A stretch of DNA of 64,000 nt, from positions 82,522,001-82,586,000 of the forward strand of contig CM060731.1 of the NCBI GenBank assembly GCA_030704615.1. The letters are read 5' to 3'. A program made the translations under genes and the position numbers. The stretch is from Takakia lepidozioides (taxonomy: Eukaryota > Plantae > Bryophyta). Below are positions 3,669 through 63,640 of this stretch, one piece after another. Every line of letters begins with the position of its first letter. Positions within the stretch are counted from its first letter, which is position 1. Under the pieces are notes generated by a model that saw only the letters and a program-made list of their open reading frames with translations, was not told the DNA's origin and ran no database searches.

Positions 3669-4007
3669 GTCAAGGGATTTAGCAGCATTGCAAAGGCTCT
3701 TACCAAGTTGACCAAGGTGGGTCAGGAGTGGCAATGGGAGGAGGAGCAGGAGGAAGCATTTGAGGAACTCAAGGCTCGATTGACTTCTACACCTATTCTG
3801 AGACGGCCTATTCGGGGACGGCCTTTCCAGCTACATACGGATTGGAGTATGCTGGGGATTGGAGCAGTGTTCACACAAGTGGATGATGAGGGAAGAGAGT
3901 TCGTAGTGGCATATGCTAGCTCCTCGAACAATGATGTCGAGGCGAAGTATAGTTCCTATGAAGGGGAGTGTCTAGCTGCGGTATGGGCAGTGGCACATTT
4001 CAGATGC
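3669..4007 (+). pseudogene. pol: Inverted RT-connection/RNase H fragment of the DNMT-gypsy family
   Basis: VKGFSSIAKALT...FQLHTDWS...YSSYEGECLAAVWAVAHFRC is nearly identical to element A and abuts the RT fragment on the opposite strand. Confidence 0.9.
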
Positions 4008-5430
4008 TAGTTTGCCAATCCCATGAAAGCACGAACTCTGCTCACATCCATGGGGCGTGGAATGCATGCAATGGCCTCTATCTTTGTCTGTTGAACACCC
4101 AATCCTCCAGGGTATATCATGTGGCCCAGATACTCAATTTGATTGTGGAAGAACTTGCACTTTCCGGGGTGCAGTTTCAACCCGTGCGCTCTCAAGCTCT
4201 CAAACACCACCTGAAGGTGTCTCTCATGCTCCTCAACCATAGCACTAAAGATGATGATGTCATCAATGTAGCACCGGGCGAAGTCTAGCCCGGCGAGAAT
4301 CCTATCCATGACCCTCTGAAACTCTGCAGGAGCATTCTTCAACCCAAACGGTAAGAACCGCCATTGGTACAAACAATCCTTCCCATGTTGGTCAATCCCC
4401 TTGAATGTCGTCTTTTGCTTGTCAGCCTCTTTGATTGGCAACTGGTGGTAACCGGATCGCAAGTCCAATGTGCTAAACACCTTTGCATGCCCAATGGCAT
4501 CAAAGATCTCCTCTGGAGTTGGCATGGCATATCTATCGGACTTAGTCTGACGGTTCACAAGGAGATAGTCCCCACACATCCTTCTTTCTGTCCAATTGCC
4601 ATAGATATCCTTCTTAGCTGGCATCACCGTTGCCGAGGCATACTCCCCACCTGACAACTCCACCAATCCAGCTTTGAACAACTCCATAGTCCGTGACTGG
4701 ATCAATGACCTTTCCATGTCACTATACCGGTAGGGCCTTCGAAAGATTGGCGTGTCACTTGCCAAATCAATACAAATCTCTTGACCCTTCAAACTCCCCA
4801 AATCCTTCAATCCGAAGGCAAAACAATTTCTATAAGCCCTTAGAAATCGCCGAATCCTCCGTCTCTCTCCTCCAGTGACTGTAGGTCCAACATCTGGTTC
4901 CCAATTGTCCTCAGTGACTGCAACCTTGGGTACACCGGGCTTGGAGGTAGGAGACGCATCCTTTGGTTGCTAGATAGCAACCTCTTGGGCCTTGTCCGCC
5001 CATCCTGACTGTGGCGTAGCCTCCACTTGCTCCGCCATAGCCACCTTGAGAACATCCTCTGGGGAGGAAACATCTTCAACCTCTTCAAAAACCTTAGCCA
5101 CCTTGGCCTCCAACTGATCCTCAGTGTATGGCTCTCCCCACTCCTCATACTACTGCTCGGGAGATCCAATGACTCTCTCCTTGCGCATCTCATCCCACAT
5201 CTGCCATGGGTGTTTGCACCCCATGATCCTGTGCTCGCCCCCACCCTCCACTGTCCCGGTTGGCAGAGAGGGTGCAATATCCAATGGGAGAGCGAAAATA
5301 GCCACCAATGCTTGCAATCTCCGTTGCTCAGCCATACACAAGCCAATGACCCATGTCAAGCAATTGAGATCCATTGCCTGACCCAACACCTGGCGTCGTG
5401 ATGCCTCTGACAGAGCTGGCACAGCTGTAG
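4008..5430 (-). pseudogene. pol: DNMT C-terminus, linker with in-frame TAG, and RT of the DNMT-gypsy family
   Basis: ORF 5150..5422 carries RRQVLGQAMDLN (DNMT motif X region). TAG-CAA-CCA lies at 4972-4964. ORF 4007..4810 is RT (LPFGLKNAP, YIDD). Confidence 0.92.
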
Positions 5431-7329
5431 TGGGTCAAAGCATGTTCAGGTGTCTCATTTGAGGAACTATTTCAAGGACAACAGCCCTATGTTTGACTAT
5501 CATTAGGGTCATGGGATTATTTTGCGCTTATTTTGCTAGTTTTTTGAAATACGTGTCCATCTGATAATAATGTGGGGTCATGGACATATCGCATACTGCC
5601 ACGTCTACAAATGTCTCCATCATGCAGCCCAAATTTTGGTGCATTGCATGAGGTAGCGGCAATTTTTTCGCGATCCACTGCTACACGACAAAGACAGTGT
5701 GCAATTTTGAAACTGTACTACGCGCATCTTGGCAATAATGTCTTTCTCTCTACTGTGACGACTCCTGTATGGAGTGTGAAACCAGTCAAGTCTCGAGCGC
5801 ATTCTCACGCTCCTTTCTTCACGACAAAGTACTTGAACGTTGTTGTTGTTTCGCTTACAGTTGTTGCATTGGAAAGCATCTGCACACCCCGGTGCATTTT
5901 TGGCTCCAGCACTCTCAACTGTCCATGGTTTGTCTCTCGAGCAGATGTGTGGTGTCTTGATCGCATTCTCACCCGGACCTGGTGTTTACCCCATGCAAAA
6001 AGAGGAATTCAACATGGTTGGCATTTAGGGTTCCATAGAGTCCCTGCATTGTAACTTCTACTTTGGAAATCTTCAGTGCTAATTTTGAGGCTTCACTGTC
6101 AACTCCGCAATCCAGAGGTGGTGTTTGAAACATCTCCACATTGGTCGTACTGAGCGAGCGAAAAGTGAAGTATTCTAACCTACGTATCCCTACACAAGAG
6201 TGGTGGAGACGTTCTCAGTTGTCATGACTGTTTAATGTCCAACCTAGAATGTCAAGAGGTGCGCACTCCATTAGTGAATGGATATTTGCATACTTCTATT
6301 CATTACATAGTGGGTGTGTTTCTCCACCGCAATGTGGATAATCGCAACCACATGCAATACATGTCATTTTGTCTGAGCCCTGAATCTATTATTCATAATC
6401 TATCATAGGGAGGTATGTGAATTGACCCAATTCCCTTCTTCGTGTAACTAAAATGTGTTGCCTACATGCAGGAATCTGCGAGCGATCTTGCATGAAATGA
6501 AAGCAGTGGAACCTAAGATGGAGAAAATTACGGTTCGGTGGGCAGATTCGCTAAGTCAAACACCTATTGTGGATTTTCCTTGCGACAGAGCCATCTGCCT
6601 TGCACCATCTCTATGCGTAACCTATTCCCTACCCGAGACTATCAGGGTCTACAGTTGTCCCAAGCTTTTAGTAATTTGAGTGTCAGCACCCCTTGTTCAA
6701 GTCCCTACTTTGTGCCATCCATGTCCCATTTACTCATTTTGAATGGGAACCCCTTCCGTGGTATTGCATTGATAGCCTCTTGTGGGAGACCTCATTGTGT
6801 TTAAAGTTCCACACATCACTCATCCTTGGGGAGTTAATGTAGTTGAGATGACCCCAGAGATGATGGATGGGACGTTCATGGATTATACTTTGTGCTTGCA
6901 ACAGACGTCATCTCAACTGACCACCTATATTTGCATTGGTGGATGGTGGATTCTTAGTGAGGAATCACATGTCGACATTGTCGAGGTGACTTAGTGCTTT
7001 GAATCGTTTGCACTGTGTTTAGGGTTATCCAGAATTGACAGATTTATTGACGTAGCACCCTGTCATTTTGCTCCCACATTGAGTGCCATGATTACAAAAG
7101 ATTTTCTAATACATATGGTCAATTTTTGTTTGTTGTGCAGGCCCTCAGTTCCTCTGATGTCATCATATGAGCCTGTCTGCCATAGGATTTAGGCGAATCT
7201 CCTGTTTTGTGTAGTCTTTGTGTGGTTGCATGTTGAGGGTATACATTCCCATGAATTTGTAGGTTTCCATTTGTTAGAGCCCTATCTGCAGGTTTTTACT
7301 TAGGGTGATTTTTGTTGCCGCATAGCAGA

Positions 7330-16458: not shown

Positions 16459-19041
16459 TCACGGTTTACTGATTTCGACTAGCAAACCTTTGTGAGTGAG
16501 CACCTTCTTGACGTTGAGAGTTTCGTGGCGGACTGTGTGTACGAGCCCAGGTCTGTCTCTGGTTGACGGAGATGGTTGATCACTACCTGGATAAGTGAGG
16601 CCCTCTGGAGGCTGATATCGAGGTAACCTTTCCGGCATAGGAGACCCCCGTCGCTTCTTCTCTGCCATCTGAATTGCATAGTCTTCTCCCATGTCAAAAG
16701 AATTCGGTGAAGAAACAGTTGTATCAGAATCCTCATCGCCTCTCAGGTGTTTTAATTTTCGAACTTTTTGTGGAATCATCTGGGGCATACAATGTTGTCC
16801 TACCATGTCTGGAAGTTTGTATTTTACAACTTGGTGTAACCGCTGAACAGCAAAATTGGTGTAGACACTGAGCTCCTTGTCTGTCCAGGTGAGTGGGGTA
16901 CCAATTACTGGTGCAGCGTGCAAGTACTTCCATGCCACATGTCCCTTATAGAAAATGTCATCAATGCCGAATTTCTGTGTTGACAAATGGTTCCAGGCCG
17001 CTTGAAACCATGAACGAATTTGAGAATCCTTTTGCATCATAACTTTTGGGTCATATAGGTACATATGAGGTGGCACCGAAGGTAATACCCAATGATCTCC
17101 ACTGGAATAACTCAGAAAGCGTGTTTGCATCTTTTGTTGCTCAATGTGGTAACGTACCAGAAAACAAGCAGCGTAGTATAGCCCGCACCCCATGACAATA
17201 CTTGCTATCTCCTTGGTCTTGGTATAAATGAGTCCATGTACAACCTGGAAAGCAATCAATTCCCTCAACATGGTACCTGCCTCATGCCAGTATTGTGCAA
17301 AGTGATGATCTTCAATATGTCGATTGTTCGGAAGAACTTTAGTCCTAGTTGCCATTGGCAGCCAAATACGCATGATTTGGTAGTAATGTGCGAATGACTG
17401 CGGAGGACTAAATTCTTTCCAAGCCAAATCCAACATGATGGGAATTTGGTTGAAGGGCATAATCATAGCCCTACTGTACTCCCTTGCAGCTGGAGTTTTA
17501 GGTGGGTTAAAAGCGGCATTGCCCCATACCTCCGGCTGTGGTGGCTGTGGTGTGGTTGTAGTAACCACAGGTTCAGCTACTGGTACAGTGACTTGTTGTG
17601 GTGGTGGTGGTACTGGCTCTTGTATCATTGGCATCTCCTGCACCTCCTGTGAAGACTGAAAAGCCAAAGTTCTGGCTTGTAAATAAGAAGCCATTAGCTG
17701 TTCCTGAGGGATATAGACTCTTTGGTCGATGTTTGAAGTGAGGTCTTCCACTTGAGTCTGGAGTCCGTCTACATCCTCTTGTAACTCTGCTATCCTACTA
17801 TAGACATTGTCTATAGTAGTTGTGGCAATGTTCTGCACCTGCAGCCTGAGCTCATTCATCTCGCTTTGGGTGAGCTTCCGTGGTGCTTTGCCCTCTACTG
17901 GCCCTTGTGTTAACCAGACCTGCATAAGGCTGTTATCCACCAAGTTGCTTGTGGTTCCCCTGAGAGTTTGCTCCTCTCTTAGCTTGTACAATTCCAACTG
18001 CTGTTGTAAAGCCTCCATGCGCTTCGCCTGAGGTTCAACCAATTGCGCATAAGCAGCAAGTAGATTATTGGCTTCCTTCCAAGCCTTGTTATTGACCGTG
18101 ATTTCATTTCTATTGGCCATGATGGTTTGTTGCAACTCCACGATGTGCTTCTCTTGATCAGCTTCAATCTGCCTGTATTGCTTGAAAGTATCTTCATTGC
18201 GACAGATTGTATTCTTCATATCGACAATGAGCTTCATTTGCTCAACATTCTCTTCTTCTGCCTTCGTACATTTTTCCGCTTGACTGTTTATTTCTTTTGT
18301 AGATTGGTCAAGCATAGTTGTAAATGTAGCACATTGTATCGCCATCCTGTTATGCACTGTCTGCAACTCCGTATGTAGTGCATTCAGTTCTTGCAACTTG
18401 CTTTCATGCTGCACCTGCATTTGGTATAGCTGTTGCTTATGTGCTTCGTGCAACTGGTCTTGCGCGAGGCCTGCCTCAATCAATTGTTCCTTGGCCAATT
18501 GCAAAGCCATTTCTGTATTTCCCAAGTCCTGCTTCATCTTGAGAGTGACCTCTTCATCGACCTTGTTTGCACACTCAGTGGCTAGTCGAGCCTCAAACTC
18601 CTTCCTGAGTTCCTCTCTCAAGGCTGTCAATTGGGTAATTGGAACATGGGATTTGACATAAGTCCCCAACAAATTAAGTGTCCTGCCTATGGAACTCATC
18701 AGCATTGCCTGTTGAGGGTCATCATGGTGAGGTTGCTGCTGTTCCTCCTGATCTTCAACAGTGTGATGTCTCACGAACCATTCAGGCCATTGTCCCACCG
18801 GATTTTCTTCCTGAACTACTTCATCTATCACCGGTGCTACAGTGTCATGACCTTCCGCCTGTGGTACCTCCGACACAGGTGTGTGTATTATATGCACCTC
18901 AGGATTTCCCTTGGGCAACTGTTGCACCTCTGGGATCTCTGTCTCCTTGACCAGACCAGAATATTCATAGAGAAGGTCCCCTTTCTCCATTTCTGCCACT
19001 ATCTGTTCTGTAGTTGGAATATCTAACCCTTCACTTTCCAA
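16459..19041 (-). CDS. D3 extra 3' ORF (860 aa; long coiled-coil, Pro-rich linker, unknown C-terminal domain)
   Basis: Uninterrupted ORF between pol and the PPT, with a heptad-like E/Q/K/L-rich stretch at about aa 135-435. Confidence 0.8.
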   Translation of the reverse strand: MESEGLDIPTTEQIVAEMEKGDLLYEYSGLVKETEIPEVQQLPKGNPEVHIIHTPVSEVPQAEGHDTVAPVIDEVVQEENPVGQWPEWFVRHHTVEDQEEQQQPHHDDPQQAMLMSSIGRTLNLLGTYVKSHVPITQLTALREELRKEFEARLATECANKVDEEVTLKMKQDLGNTEMALQLAKEQLIEAGLAQDQLHEAHKQQLYQMQVQHESKLQELNALHTELQTVHNRMAIQCATFTTMLDQSTKEINSQAEKCTKAEEENVEQMKLIVDMKNTICRNEDTFKQYRQIEADQEKHIVELQQTIMANRNEITVNNKAWKEANNLLAAYAQLVEPQAKRMEALQQQLELYKLREEQTLRGTTSNLVDNSLMQVWLTQGPVEGKAPRKLTQSEMNELRLQVQNIATTTIDNVYSRIAELQEDVDGLQTQVEDLTSNIDQRVYIPQEQLMASYLQARTLAFQSSQEVQEMPMIQEPVPPPPQQVTVPVAEPVVTTTTPQPPQPEVWGNAAFNPPKTPAAREYSRAMIMPFNQIPIMLDLAWKEFSPPQSFAHYYQIMRIWLPMATRTKVLPNNRHIEDHHFAQYWHEAGTMLRELIAFQVVHGLIYTKTKEIASIVMGCGLYYAACFLVRYHIEQQKMQTRFLSYSSGDHWVLPSVPPHMYLYDPKVMMQKDSQIRSWFQAAWNHLSTQKFGIDDIFYKGHVAWKYLHAAPVIGTPLTWTDKELSVYTNFAVQRLHQVVKYKLPDMVGQHCMPQMIPQKVRKLKHLRGDEDSDTTVSSPNSFDMGEDYAIQMAEKKRRGSPMPERLPRYQPPEGLTYPGSDQPSPSTRDRPGLVHTVRHETLNVKKVLTHKGLLVEISKP

Positions 19042-19253
19042 ATCAATTATTTCGGTTGAGCTGCATGGATAACTTGTGACCTTGTGACAAGTCGATCAGC
19101 TGGCTGTGGTGGTTGTGATACAGAAGTAACTTCCTCCTCCCTCTCTGAAGGTCCTGCTTCCAGTAATAGCATTCTCTGTGCTGTGTGCCCCTTCCTGACC
19201 ATGAGCTTGGGAAACATTATCATGCGGAATCCGTGAAGCCAGTGGATCCGCCA

Positions 19254-38075: not shown

Positions 38076-38828
38076 CTACGCCCACCAAAAGGAGATATGA
38101 CCACATATTCAAGCTTGCTTGTCAAAGCCAGAGGGATGCTCTGACCTGTGTGGAGTGATCAATTCAGCCATAGGACCTACTTCTTGCAATGAACTAAGGA
38201 TTCATGGGAACCCATGAATTCAGCATTTCATCCTACTTGAAGCGGGAATTGTTGCTATCCGTGCGCGGTGAAGATTTCAGTCTCATTCCATGGCTGAACG
38301 GCTTACAAGGAGGGTAACATCTTGGGGACTGCTGTCGAGGGCCAGTTTTCAGAAGAGTGTATGTCCCCTTGCCTTGTTCAGCATTTCTGATACAAGCAAA
38401 TGGCAGTCATGTCTTCACTATTCTCAAGCCAAGACACGGGTCCTCCATAGTTTAGGATGGTTTCAGCTCTCTACAGTTCTCAAAAGGGGTGAACTTTGAC
38501 ATTAGTCAAGTAGTGACGGAGGAGGAATGCTTATGAAGGAAATCTTCCAGGGTCTAAGCTTGTGGAAATACAAGTCTTGAAGGACCTCAATCAACTGACG
38601 ACTGCTCTATGTTGGGTTTTGGGGGAACTGTCAATAGGTGAACCCATTTCAGCATAAATGAATGCTAATGCGACGGGCAACAGGGGCGCACGCTTCTAAA
38701 ACGCTACAACCCCCAGGCAGCGACCCCAGGGAGTCGCAGCTAAAATGTGATGGGATGTGAAGCCTTAAAACAGGCCTGAAGCATATACTCCTTTCCTCTC
38801 AAGAAGCGAACTTGCACAACAAAGGGGC

Positions 38829-39357
38829 TGTCGTGCGCATACATATCGCTACACAACTACATCGCTGTCCAAACCACACCACACATATATGCACAATAAA
38901 GTAGTCTGCCACAATGATAAACAAAGCTAAAAAGGACATACACTTCCAACACAAGAAATATAAAATCCATCGCTATCACTCATTGAAACTGAAGTCGAGC
39001 CAGGGGCACCCCAAGCTATGGGGACTCCACCCCACAACAACCTGTATCCCTACATAAGCACACTAAAACCTAAACACATGCAGGAGCTCGGTCGCGCAGG
39101 CTCAACTCGAGAGAGATGAGCCACGCGACGCCGCTCTCGTGAAGATAAGGCCATTCAGGTGTCAAACTAAACTTGACACCTGATTTAACACTTGACCTAA
39201 ATCCAAGTGTTAAATACAAATAACTAGCTTTATTCTAGTTGTTTTCACACTGTGCTTATTTAACTTGACAGCTGTCGTGCGCATACATATCGCTACACAA
39301 CTACATCGCTGTCCAAACCACACCACACATATATGCACAATAAAGTAGTCTGCCACA
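38829..39357 (-). repeat. 3' split terminal repeat of element A: A(85)-GC-B(356)-T-A(85)
   Basis: The two A copies are identical. B matches 49954-50310 with one 1-bp indel seen. Confidence 0.96.
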
Positions 39358-39358
39358 A

Positions 39359-39372
39359 TCGCCCCCCTAGCT
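39359..39372 (-). promoter_or_regulatory. Polypurine tract of element A
   Basis: AGCTAGGGGGGCGA on the minus strand, followed by T and TGTGGCAG. The identical motif is at 2112-2125. Confidence 0.85.
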
Positions 39373-39615
39373 GGTGGATAGGTCCCTCTAACTCCAGATA
39401 GCTACAAGATGTAATAGCCACAGCCGTACTAAGTCCCTATCACTGTCCCTATTGTACTCAAACTCTATAGACCAAGAGGCCGGGTACAAGAGTAGCCCCA
39501 TCGTTAGTCGCCGTCTTGCAATCTGTGAACTTGAGCCAGAACCTCGTGTGTTCAAGGTCTCCTGTAGCTGGGCCTTGCGTTGCTTGTTAGCCTTCCATGG
39601 TTGTATCCACTCCCA

Positions 39616-41475
39616 CTATCCAATGCATTGTGGACATAACCAATCCCCATCCGGAACCATCTCAAGAGGTGGAGTCAAGCACCCCATATGCCAACCTCTA
39701 GAGCATCGATCACACACCAGCATGGTGGCTGCCCCTTTAGCAGACCCACACAACATGCACCTCAAACCTGCAGATACCACTGCCAGGTTTGGGTCAATCC
39801 TGCCATCGACATTCGGAAGGTGACATGGCGCACAATTACGCACATGGTCCTTCCAAGTTATGCCATCCCGACCCTCCAAGACCAAGACGCCTGAGGGCAA
39901 GACCTCTCGAACCCTCAAAATAACACGTCCTGCAGTCACATCCAGGGTCGTAGGAGCAGTCTGCTGCAGATAGACATAGTCACCAGGGTTGAATCTCCGA
40001 ACCCCAGGACGATAGCCCCCACCACGTATGGTAGCATACCTCAACGTATCACGGTGTTGTGCAATGGCAAGGTTCTCGAAAGCCATGGGCATGACTCTCT
40101 TGAACAACTCTGCACGCTGCTCACATGCACGTGCCCACACGTCCGGATCGTCAAGGTTAAGAACTGTAGCAGCTTCTCTGCGAATGGATGTAGGCAAATC
40201 CGGCTCTCGGCCAAAGAGAAGAAAGTATGGTGAGAAGGAGGCAAGTGATGCTTGCTTGCTGAACCTGTAGCCCATGGCTAACCAGGGTAACTGAAGGTCC
40301 CAATCTCCTAGGTGTCCCTTCTGCAAGCCATACTTGCGCAAACCCCTCTTTACTGTCTGAACAACTCTCTCTGCCAAGCCATCGGCTTCAGGATGATCCC
40401 GAGAAGTGGTGCGGTGGTCTATCAAGGCCTTGTCACACAAAGCCTGAAACTCCCCCAAGAACTCTCTCCCTTGGTCCGTGAGTACCTCAGCTGGAGCACC
40501 GAATCGGCTAAGCACACAATCCAGGAATGCATACGCAGCTCCCTCACTAGCCTTATCAGGCAATGGAACCAATTCAATCCACTTGGAGAAGTGCTCCACC
40601 ATCACCAACACGTACTTGTTGTGGCGCATGGTCAGTGGCAACGGCCCTGCGAAGTCAAGACTCCACCTGTAGCCCAATCCCATGATCGGAAGAGGGTGCA
40701 ATTGTGGAGTAGGGGCGTTGAATGAAGCACGCACCCTGTCACACACCATGCACCTAGCCACAAATTGTTGCACCTCTGTGTGCATACCACGCCACCAATA
40801 CTGCCCCTGCAGTAGACTATGAGTGCGTCGCACCCCAAAATGCCCCAACTCCTCATGGGCATGCCGCACTAACCGTGCCCGCTGTGTTGGGTGAGGCACA
40901 ATCCTCACTCGACCATCCTCCCACACTCGGAGCAGGTGTGTCCCCTCCCACCTGAACCTCTTGGCTCGTTGTAGGATCCGATCCCTCTCCTTGGCAGTCA
41001 TAGTGGCTGCCGTGTCTCCACTGCGGAGGTAGTCCAACACAACTGAATCCTCATGTATATCTTTGGCGCCACCCTGCTCATTGCTGGCCTCAGGGTCCTC
41101 AGACACTTGATCTACAGTCATCCCTGTTGTAGGTCCAACCTGGCCTTCCGCTGCCAAGATACACAGAAATGCAGATGCATGCCATCCGGGCACCATCTCC
41201 TCGTCCGTCTCACCATGCCACCGAGCTCCAGTGTCATCCTGCTGGCTCGTGCATGGATTGCGACTCAACCCATCTGCATTTCGATTGACCAAACCCGGTC
41301 GATGCACCACCTGAAAGTCATACTCTTGAAGGATGAGTGCCCACCGTGCAAGCTTCCCCGTAAGCTTGTCTGACTCCATCAACCACTTGAGTGGTTGGTG
41401 ATCCGTGACAAGGGTGAAGAGATTGCCGTATAATAGCACCTGAAGTGTGCCACGGCCCACACTGCAGCTAAGCAT
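39616..41475 (-). CDS. pol: Element A RNase H C-terminus, integrase and C-terminal PHD finger
   Basis: HEELGHFG...CMVC zinc domain, LDFAGP, TDQGREF, DGLAER, and C4HC3 PHD CMLC...CDRC...HMGC...WLCPQC (~39622-39760). Confidence 0.96.
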   Translation of the reverse strand: MLSCSVGRGTLQVLLYGNLFTLVTDHQPLKWLMESDKLTGKLARWALILQEYDFQVVHRPGLVNRNADGLSRNPCTSQQDDTGARWHGETDEEMVPGWHASAFLCILAAEGQVGPTTGMTVDQVSEDPEASNEQGGAKDIHEDSVVLDYLRSGDTAATMTAKERDRILQRAKRFRWEGTHLLRVWEDGRVRIVPHPTQRARLVRHAHEELGHFGVRRTHSLLQGQYWWRGMHTEVQQFVARCMVCDRVRASFNAPTPQLHPLPIMGLGYRWSLDFAGPLPLTMRHNKYVLVMVEHFSKWIELVPLPDKASEGAAYAFLDCVLSRFGAPAEVLTDQGREFLGEFQALCDKALIDHRTTSRDHPEADGLAERVVQTVKRGLRKYGLQKGHLGDWDLQLPWLAMGYRFSKQASLASFSPYFLLFGREPDLPTSIRREAATVLNLDDPDVWARACEQRAELFKRVMPMAFENLAIAQHRDTLRYATIRGGGYRPGVRRFNPGDYVYLQQTAPTTLDVTAGRVILRVREVLPSGVLVLEGRDGITWKDHVRNCAPCHLPNVDGRIDPNLAVVSAGLRCMLCGSAKGAATMLVCDRCSRGWHMGCLTPPLEMVPDGDWLCPQCIG

Positions 41476-42749
41476 TCTCCCTCATATGAGCTATACTTAG
41501 ACTCTGCAGCATTGTTCGAGCGGCTAGCATAAGCCACTACGAACTCTCTTCCCTCATCATCCACCTGTGTGAGCACCGCTCCAAGCCCCAGCATGCTCCA
41601 ATCTGTATGCAGCTGAAAAGGACGCCCCCTGATAGGTCGTCTCAAGATGGGCGCCGAGGTCAACCTCGCCTTGAGCTCTTGAAAAGCTTGTTCTTGCTCA
41701 TCTTCCCACTGCCACTCCTGGTCCACCTTGGTCAGCTTGGTTAGAGCCTTTGCAATGGCACTAAATCCCTTAACAAACCGTCTGTAATAGTTTGCTAACC
41801 CCATGAAAGCTCGAACTCGGCTCACATCCGTGGGGCGTGGAACCTGTGCAATGGACTCTACCTTAGTCTGCTGTACCCCCAATCCTCCAGGATATATCAT
41901 GTGACCCAGATACTCAATCTGGTTGTGGAAAAACTTGCACTTGCCCGGATGTAACTTCAATCCGTGCGTCCTCAAGCGCTCAAATACCCCCTGAAGGTGT
42001 CTCTCATGCTCCTCCACCGTAGCACTAAAGATGATGATGTCATCTATGTAGCACCGAGCAAACTCCACCCCTGCTAGAATCCTGTCCATGACTCTTTGAA
42101 ACTCAGCGGGAGCGTTTTTAAGCCCAAATGGTAAGAACCGCCACTGGTATAGGCAATCCTTCCCGTGCTCATTGATCCCCCAGAATGCCGTCTTTTGCTT
42201 ATCCGCCTCCTTGATCGGCAACTGGTGATATCCGGATCGTAAATCCAACGTGCTAAAGACCTTGGAATGCCCAATGGCATCAAAGATCTCCTCTGGTGTT
42301 GGCATGGCATACCTATCGGACTTGGTCTGACGATTTACAGGCCGGTAATCACCGCACATACGTCTCTCCGTCCAATTGCCATAGACATCCTTCTTAGCTG
42401 GCATCACTGTGGCTGAAGCATACTCTCCACCAGAGAGCTCCACCAAACCTGCCTCCCAGAGATCTTGAGTCCTCATCTGAATCAAAGACCTCTCCATGTC
42501 ACTGTATCTATAGGGTCTCCGAAAGATTGGCGTGTCAGTGGCCAACTCAATACGGATCTCTTGACCCTTCAGTGCTCCCAAGTCCTTCAAACTGAAGGCA
42601 AAGCAATTCCTGTAAGCCCTCAGGAACCGCCGTATACGTCGTCTCTCTCCTCCGGTGACAATGGGTCCAATATCAGGCTCCCAATTGTCCTCCGTAACTG
42701 CAACCTTAAGTCCAGTGGGCTTAGAGGTAGAGGACGCGTCCCGTGGTTG
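41379..42749 (-). CDS. pol: Element A reverse transcriptase and RNase H, in frame with the upstream ORF across one TAG
   Basis: LDLRSGYHQ, LPFGLKNAP, YIDD, HTDWS and YEGECLA motifs. Confidence 0.96.
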   Translation of the reverse strand, partial: QPRDASSTSKPTGLKVAVTEDNWEPDIGPIVTGGERRRIRRFLRAYRNCFAFSLKDLGALKGQEIRIELATDTPIFRRPYRYSDMERSLIQMRTQDLWEAGLVELSGGEYASATVMPAKKDVYGNWTERRMCGDYRPVNRQTKSDRYAMPTPEEIFDAIGHSKVFSTLDLRSGYHQLPIKEADKQKTAFWGINEHGKDCLYQWRFLPFGLKNAPAEFQRVMDRILAGVEFARCYIDDIIIFSATVEEHERHLQGVFERLRTHGLKLHPGKCKFFHNQIEYLGHMIYPGGLGVQQTKVESIAQVPRPTDVSRVRAFMGLANYYRRFVKGFSAIAKALTKLTKVDQEWQWEDEQEQAFQELKARLTSAPILRRPIRGRPFQLHTDWSMLGLGAVLTQVDDEGREFVVAYASRSNNAAESKYSSYEGECLAAVWAVAHFRCYYTAISSPLSRITNHSSG

Positions 42750-44717
42750 CTATGCTGCAACCTCTTGAGCAGTACCCCCTTCCTGCTCAGTCAATGACAA
42801 GGCCTCATCCTGCCCCATCATCTCATCATTGAGAACCTCCTCATCCCGAGAAGAATCCCCAACCTCATCCATCACAGCTGCCTTCGCTGCCAACTCCCTC
42901 TGAACCTCGAGCACCTCCCACATGTGCCATGGATGTCTACACCTCGTGGTCCTCACCGGCTCGCCCCCACTCGCTGCCTGTACCGTCTCGGTAGGCAGAG
43001 AGACCATCAAGGGAAGTGCACTCCGCACTCTACGTTGCTCAGCCATAGCCAAGCTGACAATCCAGGTCAAGCAATTGAGATCCATTGCTTGCCCCAACAC
43101 CTGACGACGTGATGCCTCAGAAAGAGAAGGCACCGCCGTGGTCCCAGTGGAAAACCCCATAGCCCGCTCTCGCTCGTCGGCATTAGGCTCCACTAACTGC
43201 TGCAACTGAGCATCCCACAGGAGGCCAGGTCCACCATCCCGAAAAGCATGGGATCCTGGGAAGCTGAGCAGTGTAGGTAATGCTGCTCGTGGTTGACCCA
43301 CCCTGTTGACCACTGCCAAAGGCGAACGGTCATCGTGTCTCACACGTTGAGACTGCCTTCCTGTGTCCAAAATGCCATCCACGGTGAGGTGTGCTGGCCG
43401 CTGCACCCCATCAAATGCACGCTTGAGCAGTGCGGGTGGCATCAAGTTAGTCCACCATAGTCGTGGACGATGAGCCCGTGACCCCACTGCAGCTGCATCC
43501 AGCAACACTGCTGACCCAAGCCACGACCGGACTTGATGCACACTGGCCATCACCCTGGCCCGAGAATCACCCATCAGTGGCACATTCTCCAAGATGTATG
43601 CCGGAGATACAGCCTGATGAAGCTGCAAGTGGCGCAAAATCCGCACCATCTCCCAAAACAGACCCGTCCTCGAGTCTCGCAATCCATTGCCATGCCCGGC
43701 TGATGAATGCCCTTGGCAGGGCCAACCTGCCACTACCAGATCAATGGAGCCAACCCGCTCCAAATCCTGCGCCCCCAGCAACGAAATGTCTGCTGGCAAG
43801 GCCTGCTGATATCCACGAACTGCAGACACCTGCAACAACTCAGGGTGCTGCTGCACCATCTGAGCAACATGGCGCAGTGAGACGCGTCGTGCAGTCTCAT
43901 CCCTCTCCACATACAGGTAACGTCGAACTCGTACACCTGCCTGCAGCACTGCAGCCAATCCAGTGCTGATCCCGCCAAATAAGTCCAGAAGGCATATGCC
44001 TTCATCCGGTCGCTGCCACACAAGAGGTGTGGTGTCCAATGGCGACAACTGAGGTGGCCCTGGTGCAATCACCGCACTCTCCTCCTCTCCTGACGGTACA
44101 AAAGCTTCTACCCAAGCTTGTTGCACCCGTCCATCAGCAGCGTGCTGCAAATCCTTGCTCGTACCCCACAACGGAGTGTGAGCAACCATGGCAGGCAACT
44201 CCGCCGTACCATGCATGTCATCCTGCTCTGCTGGAGGTGGCACATCCTCTGCATGGGCATTGCCTTCCAGCAACTCTCCAGGCCAACTAACTGCAGCTGT
44301 GAAGGCGGCTAGTGTTGGCATCTTGCCCCGCTGAGCAGCTGCAATACCCCCAATGAATGTCACAGGGAGCTGTGCACGGCGACCATCCCCTGACTGCCAT
44401 CCAGGCCTGTAGGATGCTGACTCCTCCCAGAAATCCAGGGTGAAGCCCATGGGGTATAACACTGCCCCACCAACGAGGACATCGTAAGAGACCGCGTCTG
44501 TCACAATGGCCTTGGCTCGCATCACTGAGCCATCTACAGGATGATCCGGCTGCAGTCTAATAGCCAACTGATGCCGTGTCATGCCGCGAGCCTGCTCTGA
44601 TCCTCCCAGAGATGTCTGTATCTGGAAAGGACAAGGCTCCATATCCGCCTCCATGAGGCCCAAACCTGCAATAGCAGCTCTGCCCAACATCAGTGGCTGA
44701 GCTCCTGAGTCCAACAA
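42750..44717 (-). CDS. Element A aspartic protease plus DNMT3-like C5 cytosine methyltransferase (~43050-44000)
   Basis: LLDSGA protease; MTase motifs I LDLFGGISTG, II YVERD, IV AGWPCQGHS, VI LENVP, VIII RAHRPRLWWTN, IX ERERAMGF and X RRQVLGQAM, in unpermuted order. Confidence 0.93.
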   Translation of the reverse strand: MLDSGAQPLMLGRAAIAGLGLMEADMEPCPFQIQTSLGGSEQARGMTRHQLAIRLQPDHPVDGSVMRAKAIVTDAVSYDVLVGGAVLYPMGFTLDFWEESASYRPGWQSGDGRRAQLPVTFIGGIAAAQRGKMPTLAAFTAAVSWPGELLEGNAHAEDVPPPAEQDDMHGTAELPAMVAHTPLWGTSKDLQHAADGRVQQAWVEAFVPSGEEESAVIAPGPPQLSPLDTTPLVWQRPDEGICLLDLFGGISTGLAAVLQAGVRVRRYLYVERDETARRVSLRHVAQMVQQHPELLQVSAVRGYQQALPADISLLGAQDLERVGSIDLVVAGWPCQGHSSAGHGNGLRDSRTGLFWEMVRILRHLQLHQAVSPAYILENVPLMGDSRARVMASVHQVRSWLGSAVLLDAAAVGSRAHRPRLWWTNLMPPALLKRAFDGVQRPAHLTVDGILDTGRQSQRVRHDDRSPLAVVNRVGQPRAALPTLLSFPGSHAFRDGGPGLLWDAQLQQLVEPNADERERAMGFSTGTTAVPSLSEASRRQVLGQAMDLNCLTWIVSLAMAEQRRVRSALPLMVSLPTETVQAASGGEPVRTTRCRHPWHMWEVLEVQRELAAKAAVMDEVGDSSRDEEVLNDEMMGQDEALSLTEQEGGTAQEVAA

Positions 44718-46950
44718 GACCCGCAGTGGCCGGTACTTCTTGCTGCCGGTCCACTCAAAGTGAAAATGCCTCCCTGGTTGTCTAACAAGACAACTCCAGG
44801 TGTCACCATGGCGCGCTCAATGGCTGGCCTAGCTGGCAGCTCCGTCAATCTGGCAGCTGCAGCTTGCCAGGGCGCTGCCGTGGCAGTCTTGACCCTCAAA
44901 TCCGAGGATCCCTCTGCCACTACACCTTCCACTAACTCCGCAGAAGATGAAGTGACCTCCCCACTCTCGCAGAGTGTTGCTGCTAGTCTGAACACTGCAG
45001 CTGGTCTCACTCCCGGCGTCGCAATCATGGTTGCCGAGAACAGTGGGGCTTGACACACAGAGGTGGCTGCCCCCAATAACACACCGGCCGCACTAGCCTT
45101 GGCAGCAGGAGTCAATGCTGCACGTGTAGCTCTCCCCAATGGCATAGTAACCTCCGCCTCGGTAACAGTCGGGCGAGAACTAGGTGCCATGGATGGCGTT
45201 GACACTGTCTCCGCCAAGGTGAATGACTGAGGCAGCCTTGCCTGACGGCTTGCCTCCCCACGTTGTGGATCCAACTCCACCTCTGCACCTCGTGGCTCAG
45301 GAACTCGTGCTGCTCCTCGAGTCACGGCTGCAGCAGACTCCACCTGCTCTAATGGTAGTGCTGCTCCGCACATAAATCCCATGCCTCCCATATCTCCTCC
45401 CTCAGGAGCAGGAGGTGGACCATCCCGCCTGGGAGCCGGTACCGCCTGAGCTATAGCCATGGCAGCGAGCCTCTGCTCTAGCTGCTGAAGCCGGTTGGCC
45501 ATGCCTTGATCAACGCCCTGACCTCCACGTCCTTGGCCATGTTGAGCTTGCCCTTGGCCTGCACCTCGTGCCCGACCACCTCGTCCTCTTTGGGCTGGTC
45601 CACCTCGCCCCCGGCCACCATTGTTCCCTTGGAACTGGCCTGGGCGCAACTCAGGATGCAAGTCATAACACTGGGCATCTCCATGCCCATACTTGCCACA
45701 ATGCCCACACTGCAACTGTGCAGGCTGTGCTTGTGCCGGCCTTCTGCCACTCTCTGGGCAATCTCTCTTGACATGGGGTCCTCCACATGTCCAACATATC
45801 ACCCCTGGTTGCTGTTGGCCTGCAAAAGATGCCACGGGCCTTTGCACCTGAGGCCCCCTGTAAGCTCCATGGAACTTGGGCTGGGCAACCTTGCCCCCCT
45901 GACCACGCTGTTGGGCAGTCCCTTGTGCTTGTGGGCTGACAGCTGTGCCCCGTACAGGCATGTCCTTGCCAAATCCAATTGTAACAACTCGTTCCTCCAC
46001 CATGTTGAGCTCAATCCGCTCAGCCAGCAGAAACACATCTGCTAATGTGGGTTGGGCTGCTTGTAACAGGGTTGCATCTCGCACCCTTCTCTTGAGCTCC
46101 TTGTCCAGAATTCCATACCAAAACTGGATTGCCTGAGCTTCAGTAACCCCTTGGGTCACACTTATCAAGCGCCTCATACGAGTGTACGCCTCTCGCAGGC
46201 TCTCACTGGGTTTGCGCTGGAAGTCTTGCAAACTTCGCAGCTTCTCTGTCCGTACACCTTGGTAGTTCCTTCGCAACTCCTGGAAGAACTCCACCACCGG
46301 GTTGAATCTAGGCACATGGGTTGTAGCTGTGGCAGGAGGAGTAGTAGCACCTTTGAACTGGTACCACCTGCAGAAGTACCAGCACTACCTGCTCCACTAC
46401 TAGTGCTGGCAGTGGGAGCTATTGGTACTGATGCAGCTACTGGTCGCGTCATGCCTCGAGTAATGGAGATGTAGTCAGGTGACCAATACATCCTCCACTC
46501 CTCAATCTCTGCTTCATGTCCTCGCCTGAACTCGTGGTAATCGTCCATAGGCGGGCCTTCCAAATGCTGGAACAGTCCCTTCCACGCCATGAATGGGGTG
46601 AATAGATGTGGATTGCGCATCTGCTGCAAATCACACCAGCTGTCGAACTCCTGGATAAAGTCATCCAACTCGATTGTGCCCACAGCTCCAGAGTACCTAC
46701 GAGGCCCCTTGGTAGCTCCATACATCTCCTCCATGTCGTCCCACAACAATGGCGAATGAAAGTGCACACCTGTTGATGAAGCCTCCGAGCCTGTGTCTGA
46801 CTCTACAGTAATTGAGGGTGGCGGTGAAGGTGGTCTGAACCGAATACCTCGTCTTGTGAACCCACTCTCACTGTTACTGCCTGTAGCCGTACTCCCCTCA
46901 AAACCCTTGGGTAACTCCGTAATGACACTCACAATGTGCACCTCCTCCAC
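44690..46950 (-). CDS. gag: Element A Gag (capsid, two zinc knuckles, RG-rich region); one apparent 1-nt frameshift at ~46350
   Basis: RYSG..ELDDFIQEFDSWCD, FQRKPSESLREAYTR, CWTCGGPHVKRDC and CGKYGHGDAQC. Confidence 0.9.
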
Positions 46951-47469
46951 GTGACACTATAAGGTTCTAGTACTAATCTAATAGTGACACGGGTGGGCAC
47001 CTGTTGCAGTCTAAGGGTCATATCCCAATGGCTCAGGGCACCTGCACCTGCATCCACCGCAAGAACTCCTATGGTTGGCTGGTCATCAACCCAGCCTCAC
47101 CATAGAAGAAACACTGGTGGTCTTGCTGGTCATCACTCCAGCCTCACCACCGACAGCATACTCTAGGATTGACCGGTGATCAAATCCGGCCTAATCCCTA
47201 TGAAAGCAAGCGCCCACACAAAACCAACATGGCGCACAGTCAAGCATGCAGGTGTTGGGGGGGATCCAAACACAAGAAATCAAAACATCAACACCCCCAC
47301 ACCAAAATCCAGCAGCAACGCTGATCCTGCAGAATATCCCAGCCCAAAACCCCGGACTGACTGGCCTCCACCAAGAGAGGCTTTGGCAACTACAAGTATA
47401 AGGTAATGAAAATAGTACAGAGATGGAGGGGAAGAATAGAAGCCCGACCAAGCAAGATCTAATCCTGAT

Positions 47470-48219
47470 CTATGCTATCAACTGCCAGACTTCTCTCAAA
47501 GTGCCTCGCTCTGCATGATGGTAAGGTGTAGGAGGTATATCTATGTCCAGAAACCTGCCACTAACCTTGTCCCAAGCTACAGTAGCTCGCTCTAACCAAC
47601 CCTCCTCCTCTTTCTGCCAGGTAGAGACAAAGCAATACTCCCCTATCTCCCGCTCACTGAACACTAAAGAAAACAAAGGTAGGGTCTGATAGTCTCTCAA
47701 CTCGAAAGCTTTGAGACGGTTGCGGGTGTCCTCATTGCGAATGACTGCATCTCCTTCACGCACAACAAACATGTCATTGCTGATGAACCCCCGCTCATGG
47801 TTGCCCTGTGCAGAGCGTATCCGGCTGCAACCATGTCTGATTGCACAAACTTGTGTAGCTCCTGCTCCTCTGCTCCAGTACACCACGGCCTTGTGACTGA
47901 AAACCTTGGTCCCCGGGGCTGTCTTTGGCTGTGTTCCAAGCCTAGCTTTCACCCACTTTGGTATTTCACCTACAGCTGCAGAACTGCTGGCTCCAACAGA
48001 GTTCTGACTGTCCAAGGCAATATTGAGGCCCTCAATGCCAACTACAGCAGTCTGTTGTCTACTGCTAATGCCTGACTCCCAGTATGCAATCAACTCGTCC
48101 AACTGTTCTCCACTCAAATCAGTCTGAGTTCCTTGGGAAACATAAATCCTGTCCCCTTGTGTGCACAGGCTAAGAGAAGAGACCTGCCCTTCAATTACGT
48201 CCTCATTTCCCCCAGCCAT
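47470..48219 (-). CDS. Extra ORF (249 aa) in the 5' leader of element A, function unknown
   Basis: ATG-started open frame, sense to gag, inside the TSD-bounded element. Confidence 0.55.
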   Translation of the reverse strand: MAGGNEDVIEGQVSSLSLCTQGDRIYVSQGTQTDLSGEQLDELIAYWESGISSRQQTAVVGIEGLNIALDSQNSVGASSSAAVGEIPKWVKARLGTQPKTAPGTKVFSHKAVVYWSRGAGATQVCAIRHGCSRIRSAQGNHERGFISNDMFVVREGDAVIRNEDTRNRLKAFELRDYQTLPLFSLVFSEREIGEYCFVSTWQKEEEGWLERATVAWDKVSGRFLDIDIPPTPYHHAERGTLREVWQLIA

Positions 48220-49941
48220 GCAAGGAGTACATCCACAGATTTGTCTCTCATATAGACCAGCACAGGTTCTAGAGACAGGATTGTGGATCTTTTATGGCCC
48301 ACTCACACTCTAAAAATTCCATAGATTTTTAGCAGAGTCCCAAAAACAGAAACCAGGTCTAGGTAGGTAGATTTCCCCTTTCTGCAGCTATCCCCCCAAA
48401 AACTGAGTCAAACAGAGCCCATATGACAAAGATATGACCAATTAGGCTCTAAATCATTCGAATTAGATCAAAAAGGCTTTTTTTTTTTTTTTTAACACCA
48501 AAACGTTCTCGCCATTAAAAACTGTTCCCATGTTATCTACGGGTTGATCTGTCGGATAAGTGATATCCACACTTGTGCCCTCCGTTCCCTGCAGGTTCCC
48601 GATTTTCCATCTGAACAGCCCGTCTCGAGTTCTCCACACATGGGCGGGTCTTGGGGAATTACGATGAATACAATGGCACGCTGAAGCTCAGCAGCAGGTA
48701 GACAATGTGTCCATTAATGTAAAGAGCCTGGCAGATCGACAGTTTGAAACGATCAATGCTTCATCTCCTGTTATGCCATTCGCATCAGCATGCCGTAGAT
48801 TGTCTGTCAACCAATATCCGAGTTCAATTGTCCAAGCAGAAATCTACTAGAAATCTACCAACCGGCTACTGATTCCATAAATACTGGCAACTCCCATTCT
48901 GGATCTGTACTCAATGGATCAGTATAGAGTGGCTGCCCTTAGGGCGCGCTTCATCCCAACCAGGGTAATCTGCACTGAAGCCGAGATGACACTTGAAGCG
49001 GCTGCTTCCACAATGCTCCCTCTTTGGTGCATTCATCGTGCTAATCTAGCACTGCCCAAACCACGCCACAAACTCTCGTTGGTGCAGGAAATATGGCTGC
49101 CGCATTGCAGGTCTCGGGTCAGGCTCTCCATATCCTAGGCGTGCATATTGCTGCTGATATTGGGGCTGCCTTCAAATTGACTGCCAATAGGCCCGAACCT
49201 TAATTGCGCACTTGCTAGAAAATCTAGCCTGACCCCGTCCATCCATTTGCTTGCTTCCTCGCGATGTGCAGCCAGACAACCTCACATCAACCAGCCCACA
49301 ACCACTCCTTCATGGTGGCTGGACTATAGTCGCACACCGACTTCCCACCCATTGCTAGTAACCATTCCACATGAAAGCCAACGACGGCACAATCTGCCTT
49401 CATGCCAGCCTGTCCCTCCTCGCTGACCAAGAAAACCAACGATAGCCAGCCAACTTCTCAACTCGGCCTTTACTGATTGCACACCCTGATATATGCCATG
49501 AACAACTTCACCAAATCGTTTGTCATCAGTACCGATATACCATTGGGACGACGACTTGTAGACATGAGCCCATCAACCAGTCCAACACCTTGGCTGCTCA
49601 CTATGTGCAGGTCTGAAACCATCAGTCTGCTCAGGAATTACCTATAGCATGGTATTTTTATCTCTGCAGCTGAAGTCGAAGACCACGGTCCACCCACTCG
49701 CGTAACCAGCTGCACCTCCGCTTCTAACCACCAAGACAATGAAGGCTTGCATCCCAGCCTTGCGAGACAACAATAATGCTGATCGTTTCACCATGCTCGG
49801 CTCTCAATCTGCCGCTCAGCCAGTGACCGTTAAAAGGAAGAATACCCATGCACTTTTGTGTTACCGCTTTCAACACACACAAAATCCACAAGTGCTAAAA
49901 ACTAATTAAGCTCACATCTTGCACTCACAGATGCAAGCTCA

Positions 49942-49953
49942 ATCTCTCTCGAG
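49942..49953 (-). promoter_or_regulatory. Non-tRNA (self-priming) primer-binding site of element A
   Basis: CTCGAGAGAGAT abuts the 5' repeat and is perfectly complementary to 50145-50156 inside that repeat. Confidence 0.8.
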
Positions 49954-50310
49954 TGATAAACAAAGCTAAAAAGGACATACACTTCCAACACAAGAAATAT
50001 AAAATCCATCGCTATCACTCATTGAAACTGAAGTCGAGCCAGGGGCACCCCAAGCTATGGGGACTCCACCCCACAACAACCTGTATCCCTACATAAGCAC
50101 ACTAAAACCTAAACACATGCAGGAGCTCGGTCGCGCAGGCTCAACTCGAGAGAGATGAGCCACGCGACCGCCGCTCTCGTGAAGATAAGGCCATTCAGGT
50201 GTCAAACTAAACTTGACACCTGATTTAACACTTGACCTAAATCCAAGTGTTAAATACAAATAACTAGCTTTATTCTAGTTGTTTTCACACTGTGCTTATT
50301 TAACTTGACA
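49954..50310 (-). repeat. 5' terminal repeat (B only) of element A
   Basis: Matches 38915-39270; no A segment lies beside it. Confidence 0.96.
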
Positions 50311-50999
50311 GGGCGAGCGGAAAGAGCAAGCAGTGCGCGAGAGGAGGACCAAACACACGAATCAGACACTAAGCAGCTCTCATCCAAAAACTTGTACACC
50401 CAAATCACATATACAGCAACACCTGAGTACACCGCCCTGACCTTGTGTCAGGGCGCCATCTTTATACAAAAGCCCTAACCTTAGTGGCCCGCCACGTGGC
50501 GAGGCATTATAGGCCCAAGCCCATGGTGCTGCCTTGCAGCCCTGGATCTAACGAAGGGCCAGGATCAAGCCACTAGCCTAAACTAACCCTAACCTAAACA
50601 ACATTGTAACGGATTAACGGCTTTATACACCAAAAAAATATATGATGAATGTGTATCGCCGTTTTGGATGAAACGGGTAAATCTGTGATGAGGAAAGTTT
50701 GGGGCATCACATTTGTGAAGCCTACCCCCCACGAAAAATCCTGAGCTCCGCGAAGTACAAGATAAGAAATAACAAGTAAATGTTTGGGGAGAAAATCACC
50801 CTCCACTGCTGGGTGAAAAACCTACCAAAGGAAAACCTAGCACCTGCAATTTGGGCCGAGGACAAAACCTTTGGCTAGGAAAACCGTGCAGGGAGTACAC
50901 GTGGTGACATATCATAGGTCTACAAAATGCATCAAGAGCTAGAACAAAAGGACAGAGCCGCAAGCTAACACTAATCCGTCGAGGAAGCCAATCTGAAGA

Positions 51000-57586: not shown

Positions 57587-58046
57587 TAAAACAAGCCTGA
57601 AGCATATACTCCTTTCCTCTCAAGAAGCGAACTTGCACAACAAAGGGGCGAGCGGAAAGAGCAAGCAGTGCACAAGAGGAGGATCAAACACACGGATTAG
57701 ACACTAAGCAGCGCTCATCCAAAAACTTGTACACCCAAATCACATATACAGCAACACCCGAGTACACCGCCCTGACCTTGTGTCAGGGCGCCGTCTTTAT
57801 ACAAAAGCCCTAACCTTAGTGGCCCGCCGCGTGGCGAGGCATTATAGGCCCAAGCCCATGGTGCTGCCTTGCAGCCCTGGATCTAACGAAGGGCCAGGAT
57901 CAAGCCACCAGCCTAAACTAACCCTAACCTAAACATCATTGTAACGGATTAACGGCTTTATACGCCAAAAAAATATACGATGAATGTGTATCGCCGTTTT
58001 GGATGAAACGGGTAAATCTGTGATGAGGAAAGTTTGGGGCATCACA
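57587..58046 (-). repeat. 5' terminal repeat (b only) of element C
   Basis: 460 bp; starts TGTGATG but ends TTTTA, not CA. Confidence 0.93.
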
Positions 58047-62566: not shown

Positions 62567-63640
62567 TCACGTTGTCAATGGGACTTCGACTGCTCTGAAA
62601 ACTAGCTCATGAGTCATCGGGCTCCTCCAGGTAAACTGGATTGCAGCCGTTGTACCGCCCCTATTGATTCGCTGCCCAAGTGCAAACTTGAAAGTAAACC
62701 AGTCCTTCGTGAAAGGTGTTCCTCTCTCTGGCTTTGCAGTCTTGGAGACATTTGCTCTGACTTTTACCCACTCATAAAACACTTGAATGAATGACATGAC
62801 GTAAAAGCCACACTCCCAGCCAAATGATTGCTGGGGCACATCAGGCACGTGGAACTGAAATGCTTGGACAATCTCATGCCACTCTGGTGAGTCCATCGAG
62901 TACCCTAAGCACTCAGCATGAAGCTTCCGAATCCACCCTAGAACAAAGGGACATTTATGCGAGTCCTTGATAGAGTTCAGGTGAGTGTAACAGCCCTTGC
63001 GGAGGTCGATGATACAAACACTCCAGTGCCCCCTGCAATGGTATCAAACAACATGGCGTCATTGCACAATCATGATGGGCAGACTCAGCAGACCGACCAC
63101 TCAGCAGACTCAATCTTCAAACCCAGTCCACTACATAAATACAGAGGTCAACTTAATCGCTCAGAGTCAAGACGACACTGCGAAACCAGACTATGACTCA
63201 GGAGACAGTTTCAACAGACTCGGAAGAGTTCTTACTCGTCCCCAATTGGCACCAAAATGAAATCACACTCTTTCAAGTCATTGCCCAGTCGTTCAGTACT
63301 GAGGCAACCTTTCAAGACCTCCAGAAGGCTTTTACGTTGCCCCACCCCCAATGACTTCAACACCGTCCACATCGACGTTGGAAGAACAACAATAGTGTTG
63401 GTGAACGCAGCCTCAACCGACTTCTCATAGAATCGACACCACAGCTCCAGGAGTCTATCTGTGCACTCCGACTCCTTCTGGAGCGCCTTTATGTCATCCG
63501 GCGACAGTCCGCATTCAAACCGTGGGTCCCCTTCAAAAAACATCAGCATGGAATTACCCGCCTTCACGTGCAGAGCATGTGCTTTGCCAAACCGAGCACC
63601 CATCCTGCACAAAGCAGACCATCCTTCGGGAAGCCTCATG
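62567..63640 (-). pseudogene. Ulp1/C48-like cysteine protease domain, spliced and decayed, probably transposon-borne
   Basis: DFILVPI and VPQQSFGWECGFYVMSF (PQQ...CG catalytic-Cys motif), then DWF. The catalytic His was not located. Confidence 0.65.

Follow-up and report, generated by a model that had tools for sequence, protein, structure and literature searches.

The DNA analysed here is a 64,000-nt stretch of the Takakia lepidozioides (Bryophyta) genome (GCA_030704615.1, contig CM060731.1, positions 82,522,001 to 82,586,000), referred to as the window and numbered from its first letter. Its minus strand carries an 11,485-nt Ty3/gypsy retrotransposon (38827..50311) that encodes a cytosine methyltransferase (DNMT), and an in-frame TAG codon (42752-42750) separates this enzyme from the reverse transcriptase (RT) that follows. 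Both of its ends abut a host repeat that is found uninterrupted at 57620-57670. In coding order the element contains Gag (44690..46956; a weak Retrotrans_gag match, E 0.0024), an aspartic protease recognised by its LLDSG motif (44397..44756), the DNMT3-like C5 cytosine methyltransferase (43017..44006; FGG, PCQ, ENV and RxR motifs; PF00145, E 7e-13) and an open linker (42753..43016), which completes open reading frame 1 (ORF1). Beyond the stop, domain searches located the RT (41760..42683, with a YIDD motif), RNase H (41320..41714, low end approximate) and an integrase with an H2C2 zinc finger and rve core (40042..40911), and a PHD finger (39619..39801; E 1.7e-10) ends ORF2. Integrase and PHD finger lie within 41481-39616 on the minus strand, and RT and RNase H precede the integrase, which is the Ty3/gypsy domain order. 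The protease of the window copy had no match in a Pfam search; its relatives contain PF13650. Among solved structures the DNMT was matched best by DNMT3A (E 6e-11), ahead of DRM2 and HhaI, and its catalytic motifs are present in an unrearranged domain.

At the junction the minus strand reads GCA GCA TAG CAA CCA (42758-42744), as the preliminary description of this DNA had reported. The TAG closes a 688-codon frame encoding protease and DNMT, and a 456-codon frame encoding RT and RNase H follows in the same phase. Directly after the stop, CAA CCA CGG (42749..42741) comprises the CAR-YYA hexamer and a G at +9 (motif as in PMC2754532 and PMC3159437). A diverged fragment of a second copy (4007..5431, minus strand) preserves the end of the DNMT, the linker, TAG CAA CCA AAG (4972-4961) and RT. 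Its junction, GCT ATC TAG CAA CCA (4978-4964), has the stop and hexamer at the same place among different neighbouring codons, again as first described. The RT regions of the two copies differ at a proportion of 0.59 of synonymous sites (pS) and 0.06 of non-synonymous sites (pN). The position 162 nt downstream of the stop that had been taken for the start of the RT frame is a Leu TTG codon; in both window copies the first in-frame ATG lies 252 nt past the stop, inside RT, and no in-frame ATG occurs before codon 85. Among 51 stops in the window that end frames of at least 150 codons, the TAG of the element is the sole one followed by CARYYA, a sequence expected after a given stop with a probability of about 0.0015 from local base frequencies.

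The statement that one in-frame TAG divides the coding region holds for the family and fails for the window copy, which has three additional one-base frameshifts, near 46351, 44742 and 41432. The first two split Gag into two frames and the third cuts RNase H. Contigs of other copies lack the frameshift at 46351 in runs X1, X5, X6 and X8, and those at 44742 and 41432 in runs X1, X5 and X6; therefore the three frameshifts are private to the window copy or to its assembly.

The stop is present at every readable homologous junction. A metagenome scan yielded 80 loci, and of the 83 sequences examined 46 spanned both DNMT and RT. Every one of the 46 is interrupted at the corresponding codon, 36 by TAG and 10 by TAA. 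Nine of the other 37 sequences were checked, five having the stop and four being broken or cut earlier; the remainder are truncated, of other architecture or unrelated. The five additional copies, broken downstream, all read TAG CAA CCC. A scan of a genome collection added locus L099 (AAG TAG CAA TCA CCG), an intact element of 2,210 codons in one frame with the TAG as its sole stop and with DNMT and RT 52% and 69% identical to those of the window. L099, a plant-type retrotransposon with a 57-nt terminal overlap, is filed in a cyanobacterial assembly, probably through bin contamination. Scans of viral contigs returned unrelated methylases or nothing. The total is a stop in 52 of 52 readable homologous junctions (42 TAG, 10 TAA); two further organisms, B and C, do not enter this count. 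The preliminary description had also raised the case in which most copies have a sense codon here; not one of the 52 does.

Many of these junctions are copies of a single major family, whose 39 loci reduce to 32 distinct decayed copies (L028 was left out, here and from the tree), so the independent units are six lineages: both copies in the window, L006/L052, the major family, L040 and L099. Pairwise identity among the six is 0.37 over positions -45 to -1, rises to 0.78 at +1 to +6 and falls to 0.39 at +7 to +45, and among the four deepest lineages the hexamer is 83% identical. Silent sites of RT are at or near saturation among the deep lineages (pS 0.78-0.88, against pN 0.12-0.23); between the two window copies the non-synonymous rate dN is 0.063 and the synonymous rate dS is 1.18 (dN/dS about 0.05). 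By these substitution measures, RT downstream of the stop is under purifying selection. The motif TAG-CAR-YYA, whose conservation across copies had been proposed as a check, is kept beyond the saturation of silent sites: the exact hexamer is present in four of six lineages (both window copies, L006 and L099), with one mismatch each in the major family and L040. A G occupies +9 in 47 of 47 RT-linked junctions and in four of the five downstream-broken copies. Codon +2 encodes Pro or Ser, and codon +3 encodes R, K, V, M, R and P across the six lineages. Because the residue at codon +3 varies and yet its third base is always G, constraint at the junction, as read from these alignments, acts on bases and not on residues.

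A separate TAA-bearing active lineage was considered and rejected, because copies with TAA do not group together on the tree but are scattered, and their frequency (8 of 32) lies within background decay, which at TAA-generating contexts has a mean of 0.147 and reaches 0.2 or more at 6 of 24 sites. TAA copies match background decay and are therefore uninformative on splicing versus readthrough. Across the major family (L003-L065), C-to-T decay peaks at CG and CHG (about 0.15-0.28) and, among CHH contexts, is raised at CTN and CAA, a pattern that records host methylation preferences.

Homologues whose source is named come from Marchantia, Calypogeia and Sphagnum. ORF1 proteins from these and other sources end about 50-180 residues past the DNMT domain, the same place at which ORF1 of the window ends, and in intact relatives (L099; Marchantia Mp_4g09160) Gag, protease and DNMT occupy one frame. 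In both the RT and the DNMT tree, built with FastTree, rooted at the midpoint and weak at the deep nodes, a single clade (support 0.96) unites the stop-bearing loci; in the DNMT tree these ending ORF1 proteins join it, apart from the four named below. Outside it lie fused protease-DNMT-RT proteins, including KFL_009030040 of Klebsormidium nitens and a full polyprotein of 2,358 residues. No fused protein was found inside the clade in searches of sequences of 1,215-3,868 residues, with only some 8,000 candidates scored in each, except for NCBI gene models that lack the linker; these join at different places, and six of them (P0007, P0020, P0071, P0072, P0093 and P0116) were for want of the linker left out of the trees. 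The ending proteins P0111, P0113, P0114 and P0144 also fall outside the clade, without explanation; P0113, P0114 and P0144 are Gag-protease-DNMT proteins that extend just 13 residues past the DNMT and lie in a separate clade. Since DNMT and RT are fused in Klebsormidium and in other algal-type relatives outside the clade, the stop is a trait derived within one clade; by the simplest reading of the trees it was gained once, on the stem of the stop-bearing clade. The stop is a real, clade-wide feature.

In our judgement the conserved UAG probably serves programmed readthrough, with a signal of tobamovirus type (UAG-CAR-YYA-xxG). In tobacco mosaic virus (TMV) the hexamer CAR YYA is essential and directs 6-10% readthrough in stable Arabidopsis lines, with Tyr inserted at the stop (PMC2754532), in agreement with the earlier identification of UAG-CAR-YYA as a TMV-type signal. 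The extended form xxA-UAG-CAA-UUA-xxG does not vary among 105 tobamoviruses (Firth et al., PMC3159437). Like this type I signal of tobamoviruses, benyviruses and pomoviruses (UAG-CAA-UYA), the bryophyte junctions have UAG, CAR-YYA and the G at +9; they differ in that YYA appears as CCA, TCA or CCC and not as UUA, and the A at -1 is not kept.

Readthrough sites of another kind have an extended 3' stem 8-12 nt after the stop, supported by compensatory changes (Firth 2011). Each of the lineages studied here folds a predicted stem that pairs about +11 to +15 with about +80 to +115, in a register that shifts between lineages. In the window element the predicted arms are +11 to +26 (42724..42739, minus strand) and +98 to +114 (42636..42652, minus strand). 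Duplex energies rank in the best 0.1-5.5% of positions of the same element (p 0.001-0.055 each, for windows picked after the folds had been seen). Tobamoviruses have no such long-range 3' stem. We treat the predicted stem as a lead only.

Several observations weigh against readthrough or against parts of it. The most frequent family, which is Sphagnum-like and has 32 distinct decayed copies, carries CAA CCC, a departure from the consensus by one base, and an ATG at +7; L040 reads TAG TAG CCA, in a copy that has other premature stops and was counted as a decayed lineage; and the A at -1 of the tobamovirus motif occurs in just three of the six lineage representatives. The ORF1 ends of Marchantia and Calypogeia are known from proteins alone, not from the DNA context of the stop. 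As to the stem, RNAalifold did not recover a consensus in fixed register, covariation was absent (229 of 500 shuffles equalled the paired changes), and the stem beat synonymous recoding on energy in just two of nine copies. In Candida, the Tca2 junction placed alone in a reporter gave no readthrough (PMC2194720); the flanks of an in-frame stop are thus not always enough for its readthrough. The RNA evidence from the elements themselves, which bears on the first of the alternatives below, is thin, and in the L006/L052 lineage a 69-nt in-frame intron over the stop is possible.

That alternative is splicing of the kind known from Ogre, in which some transcripts would lose an intron holding the stop, or the TAG would itself be a 3' splice site joining ORF1 to RT. 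It is not without precedent or sequence to build on, as the boundary that divides GAG-PROT from RT-RH-INT in Ogre is controlled by a partly spliced intron (PMC6317226), the TAG is compatible with a YAG acceptor, four of the six lineages have a pyrimidine run with an AG at +28 to +30, and the stop is bypassed in six gene models annotated in Marchantia and Sphagnum. In L006/L052 a donor at -38, matching 8 of 9 positions, agrees in phase with a TAG acceptor at +28, giving the possible intron mentioned above (L006:4471-4539), confined to that lineage. However, with 1-5 such donors per locus, chance alone would lead one to expect about one strong in-phase donor in six lineages, L004, L040 and L099 have no donor of at least 7/9 within 420 nt, and no donor-acceptor pair recurs across the lineages. 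The downstream acceptors differ in phase (0, 0, 1, 2); the AG at +28 to +30 is absent from 15 of 40 major-family loci, and L099 lacks such a tract and has AAG, an acceptor that would compete, directly before the TAG. The linker stays open, with 45-50% AU, joints lie at differing places in the five gene models where they are readable, and splicing leaves the exon-side CAA-YYA-xxG unexplained. No joint near the stop was found in runs X1, X5, X6 and X8, and one 2,173-nt contig of run X5 crosses the stop unspliced and unedited. X5 is an RNA run by guess only; element contigs make up 0.04% of it, against 1.3-4.1% of X1, X6 and X8. Splicing, the alternative to be taken most seriously, is in our view an unlikely account.

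Separate production of RT, whether ribosomes reinitiate past the stop or an internal promoter or start is used, is less probable again. An in-frame ATG lies at +7 in the major family and at +13 in L040, and the gag-pol junction of Tca2 contains a minor promoter (PMC2194720). Yet the ATG at +7 is one of several xxG codons found at that place, and L099 has no Met in its linker or RT N-terminus. Starting at the first available ATG, codon 85 in the window copies and codon 48 in L006, would remove conserved N-terminal residues of RT, and separate production would not require the one common frame that is kept across linkers of 16-23 codons.

An inherited lesion, an RNA-edited site or a TAG read as sense by the host is very improbable: C-to-T decay is strong in the copies (about 0.2 at CAG contexts), but none of the 52 junctions has a sense codon across saturated lineages and RT is under purifying selection, the X5 contig has no edit at the stop, and reassignment was rejected since each long frame has a single TAG but 27-84 Gln codons. 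We know of no nuclear U-to-C or A-to-I editing of stop codons in land plants.

Under programmed readthrough, most ribosomes would stop at the UAG and release a Gag-protease-DNMT3 protein. A minority would insert an amino acid there through a near-cognate tRNA, perhaps Tyr, as at the TMV stop (PMC2754532), and go on to the complete polyprotein at a level of a few percent, a step that the predicted stem starting 11-15 nt downstream may aid. The element protease would then cut the polyprotein, so that the methyltransferase would be made and packaged near the level of Gag, with RT and integrase at a few percent. For the history of the elements we lean modestly towards a scenario in which the bryophyte clade, starting from a fused ancestor, evolved a readthrough stop of plant-virus type directly after the DNMT, with CAR-YYA-xxG and a long-range 3' stem; this would raise DNMT3 from the level of Pol to that of the capsid, and many methylases per particle would mark the element's own cDNA or its target site, with RT and the integrase that bears the PHD finger remaining scarce.

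The closest described relative is KnitGypsy-Dnmt3 of Klebsormidium nitens (de Mendoza et al. 2018, PMC5890265), a Gypsy element with an unrearranged Dnmt3 domain and DIRS-like repeats in the layout A-coding-B-A-B. The window element is of the same Gypsy type, with the same Dnmt3 domain and layout, and KFL_009030040 has the same order of protease, DNMT, RT, RNase H and integrase (45% identity in DNMT, 44% in RT and 58% in integrase). In KnitGypsy-Dnmt3 the methyltransferase shares one ORF with RT and RNase H, whereas in the window element the conserved stop places it in the Gag ORF; the stop-bearing elements also differ in a host range that includes liverworts and mosses. Because the stop is present in 52 of 52 junctions and the DNMT is not in an uninterrupted ORF with RT, the window element is a variant of the KnitGypsy-Dnmt3 kind and not the described family itself.

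Its repeats are repeat A, with a 5' copy at 49954..50311 and a 3' copy at 38915..39271 (99.7% identical), and the 89-nt repeat B, with an inner copy directly after the polypurine tract (39271..39359) and a terminal copy at 38827..38915 (100% identical), all on the minus strand. Besides the window element L056 has the A-coding-B-A-B layout, and the other loci have A only or are too short. Both are Gypsy elements with a DDE integrase, DIRS-like A...B-A-B repeats and a polypurine tract before the inner B; the window element and the empty host site overlap by just about 2-4 bp, and the mode of replication is unexplained. Between the 5' repeat and gag, the element has a frame of 273 codons (47470-48291, minus strand) that matched neither Pfam nor the collected loci and is covered by contigs in all four runs. 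Depth over 48526-49900 in run X1 is about a thousandfold below the rest of the element, and this 5' part may be specific to the window copy.

A second architecture, RT-RNase H-DNMT-integrase-PHD, in which the DNMT lies between RNase H and integrase, was seen in L064, L066-L072 and L075-L077 and in proteins P0099-P0101, P0107, P0119 and P0128. One of these proteins is assigned to the green alga Monoraphidium neglectum; L070 consists of one frame of 3,250 codons. This suggests Gypsy-DNMT3-PHD elements outside streptophytes with a moved DNMT module. Elsewhere in the window, an 878-codon frame without a Pfam match stands behind another Gypsy pol (16459-19095, minus strand), and 62570-63043 (minus strand) holds a fragment of an Ulp1 protease (Peptidase_C48).

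Readthrough stops of long terminal repeat (LTR) elements are described after gag (bioRxiv 10.1101/2022.12.06.519325) or, in SIRE1, after pol (PMC2829016). SIRE1 is likewise a plant LTR element with stop suppression, differing in its Copia superfamily and in the site after pol, at the pol/env-like boundary; the Sirevirus precedent drawn on earlier holds for SIRE1 only, an element described as atypical (PMC2829016). In murine leukaemia virus (MuLV), in Tj1/Tosmo/Tcry1 and in Tca2, a single in-frame stop determines how much structural protein is made relative to the enzymes, as proposed here; their stop precedes the protease, whereas in the window element protease and an accessory enzyme come before it. 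The element differs also from Ogre (Tat clade), whose two ORFs are kept apart by an intron of about 274 bp where the window element has one codon between ORFs in frame (PMC6317226). The literature search found no readthrough stop between protease and RT of LTR elements, and no description of liverwort or moss Gypsy-DNMT3 elements, within a reach that ended at subscription papers and preprint supplements; the accessible portions of bioRxiv 10.64898/2026.05.21.726589, PMC12344493, PMC5009743 and PMC9985172 report neither the bryophyte stop nor bryophyte Gypsy-DNMT3. The site had been called unusual for recoding, and this stands as far as readthrough between protease and RT is concerned; regulation at this boundary itself has a precedent in Ogre, by splicing (PMC6317226).

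Annotators would score such elements as broken or would invent introns in them. If the stop is read through, the junction would be a natural, deeply conserved use of the TMV leaky-stop motif in cellular genomes. Self-methylation of cDNA has been proposed as a role of retrotransposon DNMTs (PMC5890265), and the position of the stop would imply selection for far more methyltransferase than RT. The purpose of these enzymes would thereby become testable, through protein ratios in model bryophytes.

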